Of a stretch of 64,000 nucleotides of DNA, positions 419 to 45,824 are shown piece after piece. Positions within the stretch are counted from its first letter, which is position 1, and each line of letters opens with the position of its first letter. The stretch spans positions 2,376 to 66,375 of the forward strand of contig JAFGHC010000039.1 in assembly GCA_016939335.1 (NCBI GenBank), read 5' to 3'. Under the pieces are notes generated by a model. It did not search any database. It saw nothing but the letters and a program-made list of their open reading frames with translations, and was not told where the DNA came from. A program made the translations under genes and the position numbers. Source of the DNA: Candidatus Saganbacteria bacterium (GTDB lineage: Bacteria; Margulisbacteria; WOR-1; O2-12-FULL-45-9; XYB2-FULL-48-7).

Positions 419-491
419 TGGGCCCTATAGGACTCGAACCTATAACCAATCGGTTATGAGCCGATTGCTCTAACCATTGAGCTAAGGGCCC
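419..491 (-). tRNA. tRNA-Met (anticodon CAT); elongator or tRNA-Ile2-type
   Basis: Reverse complement folds as a cloverleaf: GGGCCCT acceptor stem, TAGCTCAATGGTTAGAGC D-arm, anticodon loop CT-CAT-AA, GGTTCGAGTCC T-arm, discriminator A. G1-C72 is paired so it is not the initiator. CCA is not encoded. Confidence 0.85.
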
Positions 492-611: not shown

Positions 612-683
612 GGGCGCGTAGTTTAGTGGTAGAACGCTTCCTTCACACGGAAGAGGTCAGAGGTTCAATCCCTCTCGCGCCCA
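612..683 (+). tRNA. tRNA-Val (anticodon CAC)
   Basis: GGGCGCG acceptor stem pairing with CGCGCCC; anticodon arm CTTCC-TTCACAC-GGAAG; T-arm GGTTCAATCC; discriminator A; no CCA. Confidence 0.85.
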
Positions 684-689
684 GTTTAC

Positions 690-761
690 GGGCACCTAGT
701 TCAGTGGTAGAATGCCTCGCTTACACCGAGGAGGTCGTTGGTTCGATCCCAACGGTGCCCA
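690..761 (+). tRNA. tRNA-Val (anticodon TAC)
   Basis: GGGCACC acceptor stem pairing with GGTGCCC; anticodon arm CCTCG-CTTACAC-CGAGG; T-arm GGTTCGATCC; discriminator A; 6 nt after the previous tRNA. Confidence 0.85.
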
Positions 762-7755: not shown

Positions 7756-7828
7756 TGGAGCTGATGGGAGTTGAACCCACGACCTCTTGACTGCCAGTCA
7801 AGCGCTCTCCCAACTGAGCTACAGCCCC
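7756..7828 (-). tRNA. tRNA-Ala (anticodon GGC)
   Basis: Reverse complement GGGGCTGTAGCTCAGTTGGGAGAGCGCTTGACTGGCAGTCAAGAGGTCGTGGGTTCAACTCCCATCAGCTCCA; G3:U70 alanine identity pair; anticodon loop CT-GGC-AG. Confidence 0.85.
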
Positions 7829-39061: not shown

Positions 39062-39526
39062 ATGGCCGAACGGATGACCCAGGAGAACTACGACAAGATC
39101 GGGCAGAAGCTCGCCGCGCTCAAGAAGCGCCGCGCCGCCATCTCCAAGACGATCGGCGAGGCGCGCGAGCACGGCGACCTGCGCGAGAATTCCGCTTACC
39201 ACACCGCCAAGGACGAGCAGGGGCTCAACGAGATGCGGATCCGCGAGCTGGAGGCCAAGCTGGCCGGCGCCACGATCGTCGACAAGAGCGAACTGGCCGC
39301 CGCCGGCTGCGTCACGCTCGGTTCGACGGTGCGGATCAAGGCGCTCGACACCGGCCAGGAGTTCGAGTACGCCATCGTGGCCGAGGACGAGGCCGACGTC
39401 CTGGAGGACAAGATCTCGACCGCTTCGCCGATCGGCGGCGCGGTCGTCAACGAGCCGGTCGGCGCCGTCGTCGAGGCCGAACTGCCGCGCGGCAAGGTCA
39501 AGTTCAAGGTCCTCGAAATAAAATGA
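39062..39526 (+). CDS. greA: transcription elongation factor GreA
   Basis: MAERMTQENYDKIGQKLAALKKRRAAISKTIGEAREHGDLRENSAYHTAKDEQ: the GreA N-terminal coiled coil with conserved D and E; 154 aa. Confidence 0.85.
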   Translation: MAERMTQENYDKIGQKLAALKKRRAAISKTIGEAREHGDLRENSAYHTAKDEQGLNEMRIRELEAKLAGATIVDKSELAAAGCVTLGSTVRIKALDTGQEFEYAIVAEDEADVLEDKISTASPIGGAVVNEPVGAVVEAELPRGKVKFKVLEIK

Positions 39527-40296
39527 CAATACTTCAGTCGGTCGTGCTCGGTGTCGTCCAGGGGATCGCCGAATTCCTCCCGATCAGCAGTTCCGCCCAC
39601 CTTGTCTTCATCCCCTGGCTTCTTGGCTGGCCGGAACATACGCTCACCTTCGACGTCGCCCTCCATCTGGGGACGCTCGTTTCCCTGCTCGCCTTTTTCT
39701 GGCGTGAGTGGTGGGGGATCATCAGGGGCAAACTTGTCTGGCTGCTTCTCCTCGGCTCCGTCCCCGGCGCGCTCGCGGGGGTGCTGGGCGAGAAATATTT
39801 TGAGGAGACTTTCCGCGGTCCGGTGACGATCGCTGTTTTCCTGATCAGCCTCGGCTTGCTGCTCTGGGCGGCCGAAGTCTTCAGCCGGCGCCGGCGTGAG
39901 TTGGCGTCGGTCGGCTGGCTCGACGCGGGGGCGATCGGCCTGGCGCAGGCGCTGGCGCTGATGCCGGGGGTGTCGCGCGCCGGCATCACCATGACGGCCG
40001 GCCTTTTCCTGGGACTCAAGCGGGAGACGGCCGCCAAATTCTCTTTTCTCCTTTCGGCGCCGATCATTCTCGGGGCCGGACTGTACAAAAGTTACGGCCT
40101 CTTCAAGCACGGCGGCCTGCCGGCCGATGAGCGCATGCCGTTCCTCGCCGGCCTGCTCACCGCCGCGCTGGTCGGCTTCTTTGCCATCAAATATCTTCTC
40201 CGCTATCTGCAGAAGAACACTTTTTATCTCTTCATCTGGTACCGGCTGCTGGTCGGCGCGGGGTTGATTGCGCTGGTTTTGCTTAGGCTCCGTTGA
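39523..40296 (+). CDS. uppP: undecaprenyl-diphosphate phosphatase
   Basis: GVVQGIAEFLPISSSAHL N-terminal signature and ALMPGVSRAGITMTAG motif; polytopic membrane protein. Confidence 0.85.
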   Translation: MTILQSVVLGVVQGIAEFLPISSSAHLVFIPWLLGWPEHTLTFDVALHLGTLVSLLAFFWREWWGIIRGKLVWLLLLGSVPGALAGVLGEKYFEETFRGPVTIAVFLISLGLLLWAAEVFSRRRRELASVGWLDAGAIGLAQALALMPGVSRAGITMTAGLFLGLKRETAAKFSFLLSAPIILGAGLYKSYGLFKHGGLPADERMPFLAGLLTAALVGFFAIKYLLRYLQKNTFYLFIWYRLLVGAGLIALVLLRLR

Positions 40297-41305
40297 TCGC
40301 CCGGATCAGTTCGTTCAGCCGCCCGTAGCTCTCCCGGTCGAAGCGCATGACGAGGCGCGGCAGGTCGGGCAGGTCTTTGTCCTTGAGCTCCTCGGCGGTC
40401 GGCCCGCCCGCTTCGATCTTCCCCCCGGTCAGCAGATCGGCGAACTTCTTGTTCAATTGCTTAAGTTTGGCCGCCGGCAGCGGCTGGTTGAGCCGGAGCA
40501 CGGTCAGCGGCCCGACGTAGCGGAGCGAATTGTAAACGCTGTAAAAATCGAGTATTTCCTTAACTGCCGCTTTGGCCGAGTGGACCAGCGTGAAAAGCTT
40601 GAGGTCATGCTTGGCGATGAAGCCGCGCCGCGCCATCTCGCGCCTGATGAAGTTCAGCCACCCCCGCCAGAAGCCCCAGCGCGGCTCGATCAGGACGATG
40701 GGGCGGGGGACGCTCTTGCCGGTCTGGTAAAGCGTCAGCATCTCAAACGCCTCGTCGCAGGTGCCGAAGCCGCCGGGGAAAAGGACGGTGGCGTTCGATT
40801 CCTTGACGAAGATCAGCTTCCGGTCGAAGAAGTATTTGAACGAGATCAGTTTTTCGCACCGCGCCACGTAAGGGTTCGGCTTTTGCTCGTGCGGCAGACT
40901 GATGTTGACGGCAAAGCTCCGGCCGCCGGCGCCGCAGTTGCCCGCCGCCATTGCCCCGCCGCCCCCGCCGGTGATCACCAGGTAGCCGGCCCGCGTGATC
41001 AGCCGCGAGAACTCGGCCGCCATCCGGTACTCGGCCGAGGCCGGCTTGATCCGGGCCGAACCCCAGACGGCGACCTTGGGGACGCCGCGGTACTGGCGGA
41101 AAACGCGGAAAGCGTGGCGCAGCTCCTTGAGCGAAGTGTTGAGGAGGCGCAACTCGTAACTGTCGGCCCCGTCGAGGTGGAGCTTGACGACCGAAGTGAA
41201 CATTTGCCGGATCAACTCGGCCGTCGCCGGCGCGCTGTATTTTTCCGCCAGCGCCCCGATCTCCCGGTCGATCTCCGCTTGCCCGGTCGCGTATTTGCCG
41301 CGCAT
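40283..41305 (-). CDS. LOG-family (TIGR00730 / PpnN-like) nucleotide 5'-monophosphate nucleosidase
   Basis: AVWGSARI...VITGGGGGAMAAGN...PGGFGTCDEAFE motifs; 340 aa. Confidence 0.7.
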   Translation of the reverse strand: MRGKYATGQAEIDREIGALAEKYSAPATAELIRQMFTSVVKLHLDGADSYELRLLNTSLKELRHAFRVFRQYRGVPKVAVWGSARIKPASAEYRMAAEFSRLITRAGYLVITGGGGGAMAAGNCGAGGRSFAVNISLPHEQKPNPYVARCEKLISFKYFFDRKLIFVKESNATVLFPGGFGTCDEAFEMLTLYQTGKSVPRPIVLIEPRWGFWRGWLNFIRREMARRGFIAKHDLKLFTLVHSAKAAVKEILDFYSVYNSLRYVGPLTVLRLNQPLPAAKLKQLNKKFADLLTGGKIEAGGPTAEELKDKDLPDLPRLVMRFDRESYGRLNELIRAINGA

Positions 41306-41322
41306 TACTATAGTATATAATA

Positions 41323-41455
41323 ATCAAATCACAAATAACAAACAATACCAAATTACCGGAATTCGAATGACTAAAACAGGCAACGTTTATTTCATTGGGT
41401 AATTGTGGTTTGGGATTTGTTTGTTATTTGATGCTTGTGATTTGTTATTTTGTTA
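41323..41455. repeat. family-2 AT-rich MITE-like element, copy B
   Basis: CACAAATAACAAACAATACCAAATTACCGGAATTCGAATG...GTTTGTTATTTGATGCTTGTGATTTGTTATTT; aligns with copy A at 25062-25197. Confidence 0.7.
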
Positions 41456-41465
41456 TACTGGCCCC

Positions 41466-42779
41466 ATGGTTGGCATGGATAAACAGGCCGCTCTTGACGC
41501 TTGCCTGACTCGCCTCGGGATCAAACTTTCCGATGTGGTGGAGAAGTTTATCCATTCGGGCGGCCCCGGCGGCCAGAACGTCAATAAGGTCGCCAGCGGC
41601 GTCTATCTCAAGCATCTGCCGACCGGCCTCGAGGTCAAGATGAGCCGCGCCCGCTCGCAGGCGCTCAACCGCTTCCTCGCCTGGCGGCTGCTGGCCGACA
41701 AGCTCGCGGCCCGGCTCCTCGGCAAGAAGAGCGCCGAACGGGCGAAGGCCGAAAAACTCCGCCGCCAGAAGCGCCGCCGCTCCCGCCGCGCCAAAGAAAA
41801 AGTTTTGCGGGAGAAAAAGCTGACCGCCGAAAAGAAACGCCTCCGCCGGCGGCCGCTCTTCTTGCTCTGTCTGGCCGTCCTGCTGACCGCGGCTGCCGCC
41901 TGGGCGGCCGTCCCGTCACTGGCCGGCCTGATGCAGCGCGATTATCACGGACGCGATCTGCAGCTGAAAAAAGTCCTGGCCGAGAACAACGTTTACACCC
42001 GCTATCTCATCACTTACAAAAGCGATGACCTGACGATCTCCGGCATCATGAATTTGCCGAAGGGGAAGGGGCCGTTCCCCGTCCTGATACTTAACCACGG
42101 CTTCATCGATCCGAAAATCTATACGAACGGCCGCGGCTTGAAGCGCGAACAGGATTATCTGGCGCGCCGTGGTTATATAGTGATTCATCCCGATTACCGC
42201 AATCACGCGTTTTCCGATCAGGACCCGGACGACCTGGCCGGCTTCCGGCTCGGCTACGTCATCGACGCGATCAACTGCGTCATGGCGGTCAAGGGGAGCG
42301 ACAAGCCGTATTTCAATAAGGAGAAGATCGGGCTGCTGGGCCATTCGATGGGGGGCGGGGTCGTCCTGAACTTTCTGGCCGTGAAACCCGGGCTGGCCAA
42401 AGCGGCGGTCCTTTTGGCGCCGGTCAGCGCCGATTACCGCGACAATTTCACCCGCTGGCTCTGGCGGCGCAAGCGCCATCCGGAAGTGGCTGAAAGAATC
42501 ATCGCCGAATACGGCTCGCCCGAATCAAACCCCGCCTTCTGGGCCGGCCTCTCGGCCGTCAGTTACTTAAATAATGTTAAGGCGCCGGTCATGCTCAACC
42601 ACGGCACCGCCGACGAGTCCGTCCCCTTTGACTGGTCGGTCCGGCTGGAAAAAGAGCTGAAGGCCCGCGGCAAAAGCGTCGTCTTCTACCGGTATCCCGG
42701 CGAGCGCCACGAGTTCGGCCCGCAGTGGCCGCTCATGATGGCGCGGATCGTCAAGTTCTTTGACGGATATTTAAAATGA
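41466..42779 (+). CDS. in-frame fusion: ArfB-like GGQ-domain peptidyl-tRNA hydrolase, basic tail, TM helix, alpha/beta-hydrolase (S9/dienelactone-hydrolase-like)
   Basis: N-terminus SGGPGGQNVNKVASGVYLKH (class-I release-factor GGQ domain), then the basic tail KKSAERAKAEKLRRQKRRRSRRAKEKVLREKKLTAEKKRLRRR. Then hydrophobic PLFLLCLAVLLTAAAAWAAV, then a hydrolase with nucleophile elbow GHSMGG and a C-terminal HGTADESVP ... ERHEF triad region. No stop codon between the parts. Confidence 0.55.
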   Translation: MVGMDKQAALDACLTRLGIKLSDVVEKFIHSGGPGGQNVNKVASGVYLKHLPTGLEVKMSRARSQALNRFLAWRLLADKLAARLLGKKSAERAKAEKLRRQKRRRSRRAKEKVLREKKLTAEKKRLRRRPLFLLCLAVLLTAAAAWAAVPSLAGLMQRDYHGRDLQLKKVLAENNVYTRYLITYKSDDLTISGIMNLPKGKGPFPVLILNHGFIDPKIYTNGRGLKREQDYLARRGYIVIHPDYRNHAFSDQDPDDLAGFRLGYVIDAINCVMAVKGSDKPYFNKEKIGLLGHSMGGGVVLNFLAVKPGLAKAAVLLAPVSADYRDNFTRWLWRRKRHPEVAERIIAEYGSPESNPAFWAGLSAVSYLNNVKAPVMLNHGTADESVPFDWSVRLEKELKARGKSVVFYRYPGERHEFGPQWPLMMARIVKFFDGYLK

Positions 42780-42991
42780 TGATCAGCGTCCGCGTCGTCC
42801 CCCGCGCCAGGCAGAATAAAGTTGTTGAAGAAGCGGACCGCTTGAAAGTTTATTTGACCGCTCCGCCGGTCGAAGGGAAGGCGAACGAAGCTTTAATTGA
42901 GGTTCTAGCCAAGCACTTCGGCGTCAAGAAAAGGCGGCTGCGCCTCCTCCGCGGCGAGAAGGGCCGGGACAAGGTCGTCGAGCTTCAGTAG
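42776..42991 (+). CDS. DUF167 (YggU-like) protein
   Basis: 71 aa; VRVVPRARQNKVVEEADRLKVYLTAPPVEGKANEALIEVLAKHFGV matches the YggU pattern. Confidence 0.65.
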   Translation: MMISVRVVPRARQNKVVEEADRLKVYLTAPPVEGKANEALIEVLAKHFGVKKRRLRLLRGEKGRDKVVELQ

Positions 42992-43509
42992 TAGAACGTC
43001 AGCCCGCCGATCTCGCAGCCGATGTAAAAATGTTTGACTTCATACGGCATCCCCGGCACGTGGCTCAACGCGTCATAATACTCTTCGATCATCATCACGG
43101 CCCCCGACGGCAGTTCCCAGCGCTGCCGGCCGGAGAAACAGAAATTGTATCCCTCCTGGAGCAGAAATGATTTGATCGGGGCGGCGTTCTTCTCCGGCTT
43201 TTGCTCTTGCCAGAGGGTGTGCACCTGCGCCACGGTCGCTGCCGGTTGTTTGGCCAGCAGTTTGAAGAAGTCCGGCAGGGCAATGGCCGGCGGCTGCCGG
43301 CCGAAAAGCGGCTGGTTCGCATTATGGACGGAGCAGAAGAAATCCATTTGTTTTATTGCCGCTCTTTTTTCCGCCGGGCTCTGCTCCCCCGTTAATATCT
43401 TGAGCGCCAGCCGGGGCTGGCCCTGGACGCGGGCGGGCGGCGGCACTCTGCCGGGCCGGGCCTCCCGCGCCGGCAAAAACAATCTCCCGATCCCTGCCAG
43501 TAAATTCAT
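42985..43509 (-). CDS. hypothetical protein
   Basis: 174-aa ORF (possibly starting at the internal M of MDFFCSVHN). No confident family assignment. Confidence 0.4.
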   Translation of the reverse strand: MNLLAGIGRLFLPAREARPGRVPPPARVQGQPRLALKILTGEQSPAEKRAAIKQMDFFCSVHNANQPLFGRQPPAIALPDFFKLLAKQPAATVAQVHTLWQEQKPEKNAAPIKSFLLQEGYNFCFSGRQRWELPSGAVMMIEEYYDALSHVPGMPYEVKHFYIGCEIGGLTFYY

Positions 43510-44355: not shown

Positions 44356-44453
44356 TATTAATGTACAAAGGGAAAGAATCGCACTGGTTAAAACCTCGCA
44401 ATTCTCTTCACTTCGGACGATTAATAATTTCCAAATTAATGAGGAGGAGTCAA

Positions 44454-45824
44454 ATGAAAAAGGTATTTCTGTTCTTATTTTTGGTGATCATGGTCGGGGC
44501 GGCTTTTGGCATTGCCGTGCCCAAACTGTCGGCGGTCCCGGAGAAATTATCTTATGAAGGGAGACTGCTCGACTCCGCCGGCAATCCGGTGATTGCCGCC
44601 AAGACCTTTGACGTCAGGATCTACGATGCCCCGACCGGCGGCAACGCCGTCTGGGGGCCCGAGAGCCAGACGGTCACGCCGAACGAACAGGGGGTTTTCA
44701 GCCTGATCTTGGGTGATAGCGTGCCGGTCACCGCCGCGGTCTTCAGCGGAACACCCCGATACGTCGAAGTCACCGTTGCCGGTGAAACGATCTCCCCCCG
44801 CACCCAGCTTGTCTCCGTCGGCACCGCTTTAAAAGCGGCGGTCGCGGAGAGCGTGGATAATGGTTCGATAACGAATAACAGTCTTGCCAACGCCACGATC
44901 CAGAACACTAAAGTTGCCCCCGGCCAATTTGTCAAACAGATCGTGGCCGGCGCCGGCATCGGCGTTTCCGATGATGAAGGCGGCGGCACCGGGATTGTGA
45001 CCCTGACGGCGACCGGCACCAGCGGCGGCACCGTCACGCGGGTCAATGCCGGGACCGGTTTGCTTGGCGGGCCGATCACGTCAAGCGGCACGATTTCGGT
45101 GGATGTCGGCACCGGCGCCCGCAAGATCGTTCAGCTTGACAATTTTGGAAGATTACCGGCGGTCAATGGTTCAAATTTAACGGCGCTGGATGCCGACAAC
45201 ATTTCCAGCGGCACGCTCGACGAAAGACGGGGCGGGACCGATCAATCAAGTTTTGCTCGCGGCGACATTCTTTACGCTTCAGGAACGAATAGATTGTCGA
45301 GATTGTCAATTGGCTCGAGCGGGCAAGTCCTGAAGGTCAGTGGCGGAGTACCCACCTGGAGTACTGGAGCAGCTGGCCCTGCCGGACCGCAAGGGCCGAC
45401 CGGCGAGGCCGGACCGAAGGGTGACAAAGGTGAGAAAGGTGATCCTGGGCCAGCCGGAGCCGATGGTGTTGCCGGACCAGCCGGGCCGATGGGGCCGACC
45501 GGCGAGGCCGGACCTGCGGGGACGGGGGGGAATGCTGACACAGTTGGTGGCAAATATTTCCTGGCCAAAACCGCCACTTGGATGTCAACGGCCTCGAGTA
45601 CTAAAACAATTACTGATTCCGATGTCACAACCGGGAGTATTATTATTGTTAATCTGGTCGATCAACCAGCCCCAGCATGGGGTTCTTCTTATAAATATAT
45701 TAGCAAAGTTGTTCCGGGCGACCAAGCTTTTACCTTAACTTTTGATGGAAATTTAAGGAACAATCAATCGCACACCGTAAATTATATTGTTATTAATAGT
45801 AGCGCGGCTCCTATACCGCAATAA
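44454..45824 (+). CDS. secreted collagen-like triple-helix repeat protein with a tail-fibre/BclA-like N-terminal region
   Basis: Signal peptide [19 protein letters not shown]. Uninterrupted G-X-Y run [50 protein letters not shown]-terminal globular domain about 110 aa. The track ORF starts 31 codons earlier at 44361. Confidence 0.75.

Follow-up and report, generated by a model that had tools for sequence, protein, structure and literature searches.

Within a 64,000-nucleotide (nt) stretch of contig JAFGHC010000039.1 (hereafter the window), from a metagenome-assembled genome (MAG) of Candidatus Saganbacteria, a single open reading frame (ORF) at 41466–42779 encodes a small release factor (RF) module with a GGQ motif, a hydrophobic segment and an alpha/beta hydrolase in one polypeptide. 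We regard this ORF as probably a recent in-frame fusion of two ordinary genes, and we consider it fairly likely that a lineage-specific genome rearrangement set a complete mini-RF gene in frame before the gene for a secreted hydrolase of esterase/peptidase type. Judged from sequence, the RF::hydrolase architecture is a singleton, with both genes separate everywhere else in the collections searched; the supposed membrane helix reads as the hydrolase's own signal peptide minus its Met-Lys start, with no dedicated anchor; and there is no sign of a selected, dedicated membrane-bound rescue function. Proteins and loci recovered in the searches are referred to below by P and L numbers.

Reading frame and modules of the fusion

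A preliminary description of this DNA had reported one uninterrupted frame from 41466 to 42779, and the ORF listing and a check of the sequence bear this out: the frame is free of stops over 437 codons on the forward strand and ends in a TGA stop codon. The maximal open frame around it spans 41403–42779 (+). ATG 41466 was chosen as the biologically sensible start of a predicted 437-aa product because the mini-RF family opens M-I-G-x-D-K-Q and the fusion ORF opens M-V-G-M-D-K-Q. A start at TTG 41403 (458 aa) was rejected, as its 21 added residues fall in an AT-rich spacer and the family start aligns to ATG 41466. The features of the ORF are as follows.

41466–42779 (+): fusion ORF (frame and Pfam domains)
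41466–41855 (+): mini release-factor module, residues 1–130 (N-helix, compact GGQ domain, basic helix)
41568–41576 (+): GGQ motif, residues 35–37 (sequence)
41721–41855 (+): predicted long basic helix, residues 86–130 (sequence and AlphaFold2 model)
41848–41883 (+): recombination junction interval (blastn and codon-by-codon reading)
41856–41906 (+): hydrophobic segment LFLLCLAVLLTAAAAWA, residues 131–147 (alignment with the signal peptides of P0002–P0010)
41907–42776 (+): mature alpha/beta hydrolase, S9-type catalytic domain only (Pfam and orthologue alignment)
42339–42356 (+): GHSMGG, residues 292–297, with putative catalytic Ser294 (motif)
42603–42620 (+): GTADES, with putative catalytic Asp383 (motif)
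42699–42716 (+): GERHEF, with putative catalytic His415 (motif)

The release-factor module

Residues 1–130 had been described as an ArfB-like GGQ domain with a basic tail. The domain and the tail are both present: the Pfam RF-1 model (PF00472) matches residues 18–112 of the fusion protein (74.9 bits against a cut-off of 35, E 6e-21), and 24 of the 45 residues in the tail (residues 86–130) are Lys or Arg. Membership in the ArfB equivalog did not hold up, as the NCBIfam model NF006718 reaches 33.1 bits against a cut-off of 100, aligns to residues 15–49 alone, and is outscored on the RF module by the NCBIfam models for RF1, RF2 and PrfH. The top PDB sequence match is human C12orf65/mtRF-R (7a5h_C; E 5.7e-15, residues 18–122, with the tail covered), and chains of ArfB, YaeJ and ICT1 are absent from the 45 PDB sequence matches to the module.

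An AlphaFold2 (AF2) model of residues 1–160 was built on 51 family sequences and has a mean predicted local distance difference test score (pLDDT) of 90. The model predicts helices at residues 4–16, 65–85 and 87–127, strands at 24–32, 42–50 and 56–59, a break at R-R-P and a further helix at 131–148. It places the GGQ loop between the strands at 24–32 and 42–50, and G35, G36 and Q37 are invariant across the 51 aligned members of the mini-RF family. Foldseek searches with the RF-module model retrieved domain 3 of RF1 and RF2; the longest alignment (103 columns) was to mtRF-R, and the GGQ domain of E. coli YaeJ was matched weakly (E 0.019, 23% identity). The predicted fold is a compact beta-GGQ-beta-beta-alpha domain from which the alpha-i insert is absent, and the alignment to RF1/RF2 and C12orf65 is likewise free of an insert. 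An alpha-i helical insert within the GGQ domain is the mark of ArfB class 1 (YaeJ, ICT1), while the "classical ArfB" branch lacks it and is grouped with C12orf65 (Burroughs and Aravind 2019; PMC6514570). The RF module fits this classical-ArfB/C12orf65 type and is no ArfB/YaeJ equivalog, and "ArfB-like" is right in the broad sense.

Searching 5.8 billion proteins with residues 1–130 gave thousands of matches, of which the best 120 were examined. All 120 are free-standing proteins of 123–174 aa (median 137) named "peptide chain release factor-like protein", from Margulisbacteria, Saganbacteria, WOR-1 and Omnitrophota, and they cover residues 1–130 end to end at 60–81% identity (e.g. P0121, P0124, P0160); the standalone P0121 (134 aa) is 81% identical over the whole RF module. 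The family alignment shows the invariant GGQ, a conserved helix and a strongly conserved basic tail (RRQKRxRSxRAKEK...KK..R), after which the proteins have a short, variable, often acidic or aromatic C-terminus (e.g. ...EDWT, ...PSGLD) and then a stop. Likeness of the fusion to the family ceases after ...KKRLRRRP, 3–8 residues short of the family ends. Two of 57 conserved columns are changed in the fusion (R30H and E62A, both at columns at least 96% conserved), H30 and A62 each occur in a few standalone members, and the pairwise dN/dS of the RF half is 0.20.

The hydrolase module and its signal peptide

The GHSMGG serine hydrolase that had been noticed downstream was readily recognized: Pfam Peptidase_S9 (PF00326) matches residues 227–436 with 71.8 bits (cut-off 22.6), and together with the further alpha/beta-hydrolase models PF00561, PF12146 and PF01738 the hydrolase span covers residues ~195–436. 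The motifs of a putative Ser294/Asp383/His415 triad are intact (GHS294MGG, GTAD383ES, GERH415EF; roles assigned by analogy), all 100 of 100 conserved hydrolase-family columns are kept, and the pairwise dN/dS of this half is 0.07–0.09. Orthologues of 306–310 aa are 83–87% identical in amino acid sequence to the hydrolase module, residues 148–437 (best local alignment), and carry the database names "dipeptidyl aminopeptidase/acylaminoacyl peptidase" and "alpha/beta fold hydrolase" (P0002–P0010). A 282-aa protein from a 68,876-bp Candidatus Saganbacteria contig, MBN3033844.1 ("alpha/beta fold hydrolase"), is 100% identical and starts at the internal ATG 41931.

The preliminary description had placed a hydrophobic helix between the two domains and taken it for a membrane anchor. 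The helix is there, residues 131–147 forming the highest hydropathy peak of the whole fusion protein (Kyte–Doolittle 2.44), but its role as an anchor is contradicted by the hydrolase family. The orthologues open with a standard signal peptide, MKLRxxxLLVLLxxGxxWA|(D/E)xPSLxGLM, and LFLLCLAVLLTAAAAWAAVPSLAGLM of the fusion can be aligned to the P0002–P0010 signal peptides position by position. Because of this alignment we read the helix as the export signal of the hydrolase. Residues 131–147 comprise an h-region and an A-W-A|A signal-peptidase-type site with small residues at -3 and -1, and the net charge flanking the segment is +6 before and 0 after it. The Met and Lys of the orthologue starts align to Arg129 and Pro130 of the fusion. 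An N-terminal hydrophobic segment is present in 107 of 119 hydrolase homologues, the exceptions being largely start miscalls. A signal peptide is normally N-terminal, with a short basic n-region directly after Met, and in this respect the fusion departs from the type, as 130 residues precede the segment. No ATG or GTG lies at the expected hydrolase start, and in-frame TTG 41862 is the sole candidate there.

Database hydrolases of 279–283 aa (P0001, P0009, P0020, P0027, P0099) were considered as hidden fusions and rejected as start miscalls at a conserved internal Met. At L096 2911–3852, for instance, the hydrolase really begins at a GTG, and the signal peptide that comes next precedes the annotated Met. 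The contig of P0009 has a same-strand 184-aa partial gene upstream for which no identity was found, and the proteins of this contig are absent from the 120 best RF matches.

Absence of the fusion elsewhere

The search for the same fusion in related genomes that had been proposed was carried out at several scales, and none was found. PF00472 was present in none of the best 120 matches to the full-length query, and when 1.84 billion representative proteins were searched exhaustively with HMMER, the top 150 matches were confined to query residues at or beyond 124. With phmmer, RF sequence was found in 0 of 270 hydrolase homologues, and hydrolase sequence in 0 of the 120 best RF homologues. Recognisable N-terminal additions in the hydrolase family are GDSL lipase, Gmad2, DUF192 and LysM, and several extensions are without a recognisable domain; no RF-1 was found in the hydrolase homologues with N-extensions of 100–250 aa. 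One apparent match to residues 111–437, at L011, proved to be no fusion: a hydrolase of 329 aa, encoded beside MsrA, whose n-region is long and basic.

From the RF side, 89 RF-1-bearing loci were compared, and the hydrolase lies nearby in L009 alone, where it is unfused. In all 86 complete RF ORFs the distance from GGQ to the stop is 76–136 aa, without a hydrophobic extension. Scans of genome contigs and of metagenome contigs gave no fusion, and the RF and hydrolase genes are not even neighbours in the order of the fusion elsewhere.

Junction and gene order

In blastn, DNA homology to the L009 mini-RF gene extends as far as 41847 and that to the L002, L001 and L010 hydrolase genes sets in at 41884–41900, which places the junction within 41848–41883. 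Both partners encode K-x-L-R near the join, on reading the sequence, which amounts to a few bases of microhomology. The immediate neighbours of the fusion ORF are listed below.

40283–41305 (-): LOG/Lysine_decarbox-family gene (Pfam), the direct divergent neighbour of the hydrolase in relatives
41306–41465 (no strand): AT-rich spacer between the LOG-like gene and the fusion ORF (composition)
42776–42991 (+): DUF167/YggU-family gene (Pfam), whose start overlaps the hydrolase stop (ATGA)
42985–43509 (-): 174-aa ORF with no family match (ORF listing), here ORF174

The DUF167 gene downstream of the hydrolase is conserved in the close relatives L001, L002, L009 and L010. L002 and L010 have the order GreA ... 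LOG-like (-), a 38-nt spacer, hydrolase and DUF167, with no RF gene, and in L001 a small 23S_rRNA_IVP gene sits between LOG and the hydrolase. Mini-RF genes elsewhere have varied contexts. L009, which holds the closest mini-RF orthologue (P0121), reads hydrolase 3' end, DUF167, mini-RF and a gene starting MATAQTARIR; the order in the window is mini-RF::hydrolase, DUF167, ORF174 (-) and a gene starting MATTQTARIREH. ORF174, lying between DUF167 and the MATTQTARIREH gene, thereby stands where L009 has the mini-RF, and it shares 7 nt with the end of DUF167. It gave no significant Pfam or NCBIfam match and one sub-threshold match to XRN1_D2_D3. Nucleotide identity to L009 is 79.6% for the RF gene, 80.7% for the hydrolase 3' end and 74.9% for DUF167, and since these values are similar, relocation within the lineage is favoured over foreign DNA.

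The spacer at 41306–41465 is 160 nt long, with about 35% GC in a region of roughly 60% GC, where relatives have 38 nt. It holds several imperfect inverted repeats with arms of up to 35 nt, and an Rfam search of it gave no match. An extended -10-like element, TGTTATACT (41451–41459), stands 6 nt before ATG 41466; it was seen by eye and a consensus scan did not list it. Its geometry suggests a leaderless-type transcript that would begin at the fusion ATG. The same TGn-TAnAAT, 6 nt, ATG geometry is found upstream of standalone hydrolases (L001/L002/L010) and of mini-RFs (L005/L022). We also considered that the RF coding sequence had been inserted exactly at the ATG and promoter of the hydrolase; this was not established, as mini-RF genes elsewhere have like promoter geometry.

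Several further observations concern the neighbourhood. A BacA/UppP (undecaprenyl-diphosphatase) gene at 39523–40296 (+), between GreA and the LOG-like gene, is an insertion when compared with L001; this slot holds other genes (zf-CDGSH, LigB) in L002 and L010, and the neighbourhood is prone to rearrangement. In L009 an insertion of roughly 150 nt with a hairpin (ccctctccctttgggagagggg), at 78–227, splits the usual overlap of hydrolase stop and DUF167 start and has the look of a repetitive extragenic palindrome or miniature inverted-repeat transposable element (REP/MITE type). DUF167/YggU adjoins the mini-RF in two independent contexts, in tandem with a 2-nt gap (L009 143–852) and divergently (L005 3635–4414; L006), and in the window it shares an operon with the RF module (41466–42991). 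The association is seen in 3 of 89 RF loci and may be a weak functional link.

Two other features were recorded elsewhere in the window. A 487-aa predicted protein at 44361–45824 (+) has an N-terminal hydrophobic segment and a block of collagen-like G-x-y repeats (PF01391, residues 335–391), and four tRNA genes lie at 419–491 (-), 612–683 (+), 690–761 (+) and 7756–7828 (-).

Proposed origin and products of the fusion

Under the rearrangement that we favour, the join would have cost the RF gene its last ~4–8 codons and its stop, and the hydrolase gene its Met-Lys start. The Arg-rich end of the RF tail would now stand where the signal peptide had its positively charged n-region. Translation from ATG 41466 would yield a folded cytoplasmic GGQ module and basic helix first, and the hydrophobic segment next. 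Under the positive-inside rule, an internal signal-anchor that follows a strongly basic stretch can serve for export. Since the flanking charge falls from +6 to 0, the internal signal sequence would be expected by this rule to insert N-in/C-out, and the hydrolase domain would be exported. As the A-x-A site is retained, signal peptidase may cut after Ala147; the mature hydrolase would then be released in its normal form, and the RF module, 147 residues long, would be left at the membrane with a hydrophobic C-terminal stub. Held there through the end of its tail, with no linker, the RF module would, from the geometry of the ribosome, be poorly placed for the peptidyl transferase centre (PTC) of a membrane-docked ribosome. 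Neither half shows decay: the frame is unbroken, there are no stops, and the catalytic motifs are all present.

Several points weigh against this account. The evidence for the junction is one MAG contig, and the exact junction sequence is without a match in the genome and metagenome contig collections. The 437-aa protein is absent from a collection of 15 billion sequences, the search of 5.8 billion proteins with residues 1–130 gave no 100%-identical RF-like product, and the sole deposited product found for the fusion ORF is the 282-aa hydrolase MBN3033844.1. The predicted topology and signal-peptidase cleavage are drawn from sequence rules, and internal initiation at in-frame TTG 41862 or ATG 41931 is possible. 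Lastly, the join is very clean, with complete modules, in frame and with nothing superfluous, which could reflect selection for a functional fusion.

Alternative explanations

The contig may wrongly join or collapse separate mini-RF and hydrolase genes as an artefact of assembly or consensus. We think this unlikely, though it deserves to be kept in mind because the evidence comes from one MAG contig. The fusion is a singleton, the region is rearrangement-prone among relatives (the BacA, IVP and zf-CDGSH genes vary), and the 282-aa hydrolase is the only deposited product found, all of which an artefact would accommodate. Nevertheless, two false joins would be needed to put an RF gene between LOG and the hydrolase, and the microhomology of the RF 3' and hydrolase 5' ends, at a few bases, falls far short of the k-mers that assemblers use. 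In the window, moreover, the L009-type position holds no RF gene, as a true relocation predicts, and the join keeps the frame and leaves both modules complete.

A sequencing frameshift, the preliminary description's own alternative, is a narrower form of the same idea and finds no support, as no single indel restores two genes: positions 41820–41930 hold no RF stop and no hydrolase ATG or GTG in any frame, with only the in-frame TTG 41862 and ATG 41931 nearby, and in frame +1 the RF would end ...SAGGRSSCSVWPSC* at TGA 41884, unlike any C-terminus of the family, with the hydrolase still lacking a start.

Alternatively, the fusion may be real but a dead end, an incipient pseudogene in which one or both activities are lost and from which only a hydrolase without a signal, initiated at ATG 41931 and confined to the cytoplasm, or no useful product at all, would be made. 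We hold this to be quite improbable. It would agree with the loss of the variable acidic or aromatic RF C-terminus, with the R30H and E62A changes at highly conserved columns, with a deposited protein that begins at 41931 and with the failure of the fusion to propagate in any relative. In contrast, the frame and the catalytic motifs are intact in both halves, the h-region and A-x-A site are kept, a basic segment before an internal signal-anchor is workable for export, and H30 and A62 are known from standalone members.

Least probable, and in our judgement very doubtful, is the membrane-localised rescue put forward in the preliminary description: a selected, membrane-tethered GGQ factor for ribosomes stalled in co-translational secretion, with the hydrolase as its partner outside the cytoplasm, where it might, for instance, break down the chain once released. 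A genuine fusion of this kind, expressed from the leaderless-type promoter and kept for its usefulness, which we rate equally doubtful, might hold a C12orf65-like GGQ hydrolase at the inner face of the membrane through a signal-anchor that is uncleaved, or retained after cleavage, and free peptidyl-tRNA from large subunits near translocons. The precise in-frame join of intact modules and the promoter-like element directly at the start are compatible with it. The hydrolase, DUF167 and mini-RF genes are co-oriented neighbours in L009, so that a functional link is conceivable, and the mtRF-R substrate, split large subunits still bearing peptidyl-tRNA according to the title of PDB 7a5h, could arise at translocons. 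The interpretation is unsupported because orthologues always encode the two genes separately, and usually not adjacently, which is the very finding that had been named in advance as refuting it; no second case occurs among about 1.84 billion representative proteins or the 89 loci. Moreover, the helix matches an ordinary cleavable-type signal peptide, the AF2 model leaves no linker between tail and helix, and, from ribosome geometry, a tether at the very end of the tail would hardly let the factor reach the A-site and PTC of a membrane-docked ribosome. No membrane-tethered rescue factor of such a kind was found in PMC6514570 or in a literature search.

Significance

Had the fusion been conserved, it would have suggested that ribosome rescue is organised in space at the membrane, but it is not conserved. 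Should the membrane-tethered reading nonetheless be true, no bacterial rescue factor before this one would have been tethered to the membrane, and a single precursor would give rise to both the factor and an exported hydrolase. We would like to note that its main value is cautionary: a striking "architecture" in a MAG can be two ordinary, separate genes joined once, with a recycled signal peptide as the apparent anchor. The analysis also brings to light a large mini-RF family of the C12orf65-like kind, so far little studied, in Margulisbacteria, Saganbacteria and related lineages, hints at a loose genomic association of this family with DUF167/YggU, and illustrates that in principle a signal peptide can persist when an entire cytoplasmic domain comes to precede it.

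Comparison with known systems

The hydrolase half shares its Ser/Asp/His motifs with P0002–P0010 and MBN3033844.1. The P0002–P0010 orthologues have their own Met-Lys-x-Arg signal peptide start, whereas the fusion copy does not. True prolyl oligopeptidases and dipeptidyl peptidase IV (DPP-IV) have an N-terminal beta-propeller; the fusion and its orthologues consist of the catalytic domain only, about 290 aa, and the DPP-IV matches in the PDB cover only the C-terminal ~200–250 residues of DPP-IV.

The standalone mini-RFs share the N-helix, GGQ domain and tail motif with residues 1–130 of the fusion. The best 120 end in a short variable C-terminus and a stop, whereas the fusion copy runs on for 307 more residues. 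A small, soluble, free-standing form of about 115–170 aa with a free C-terminus is a trait of ArfB and C12orf65 that the homologues, normally cytoplasmic proteins, have and the fusion lacks. With E. coli ArfB (YaeJ) and ICT1 the module has in common the plan of a GGQ domain, presumably codon-independent in its action, followed by a basic C-terminal tail, but these proteins have the alpha-i insert and the module does not. Human mtRF-R acts with an S4-like partner, MTRES1, on split large subunits. The RF module shares with it (7a5h chain C) the insert-free compact GGQ domain and the positively charged C-terminal helix, at an identity of about 35%, although mtRF-R is soluble.

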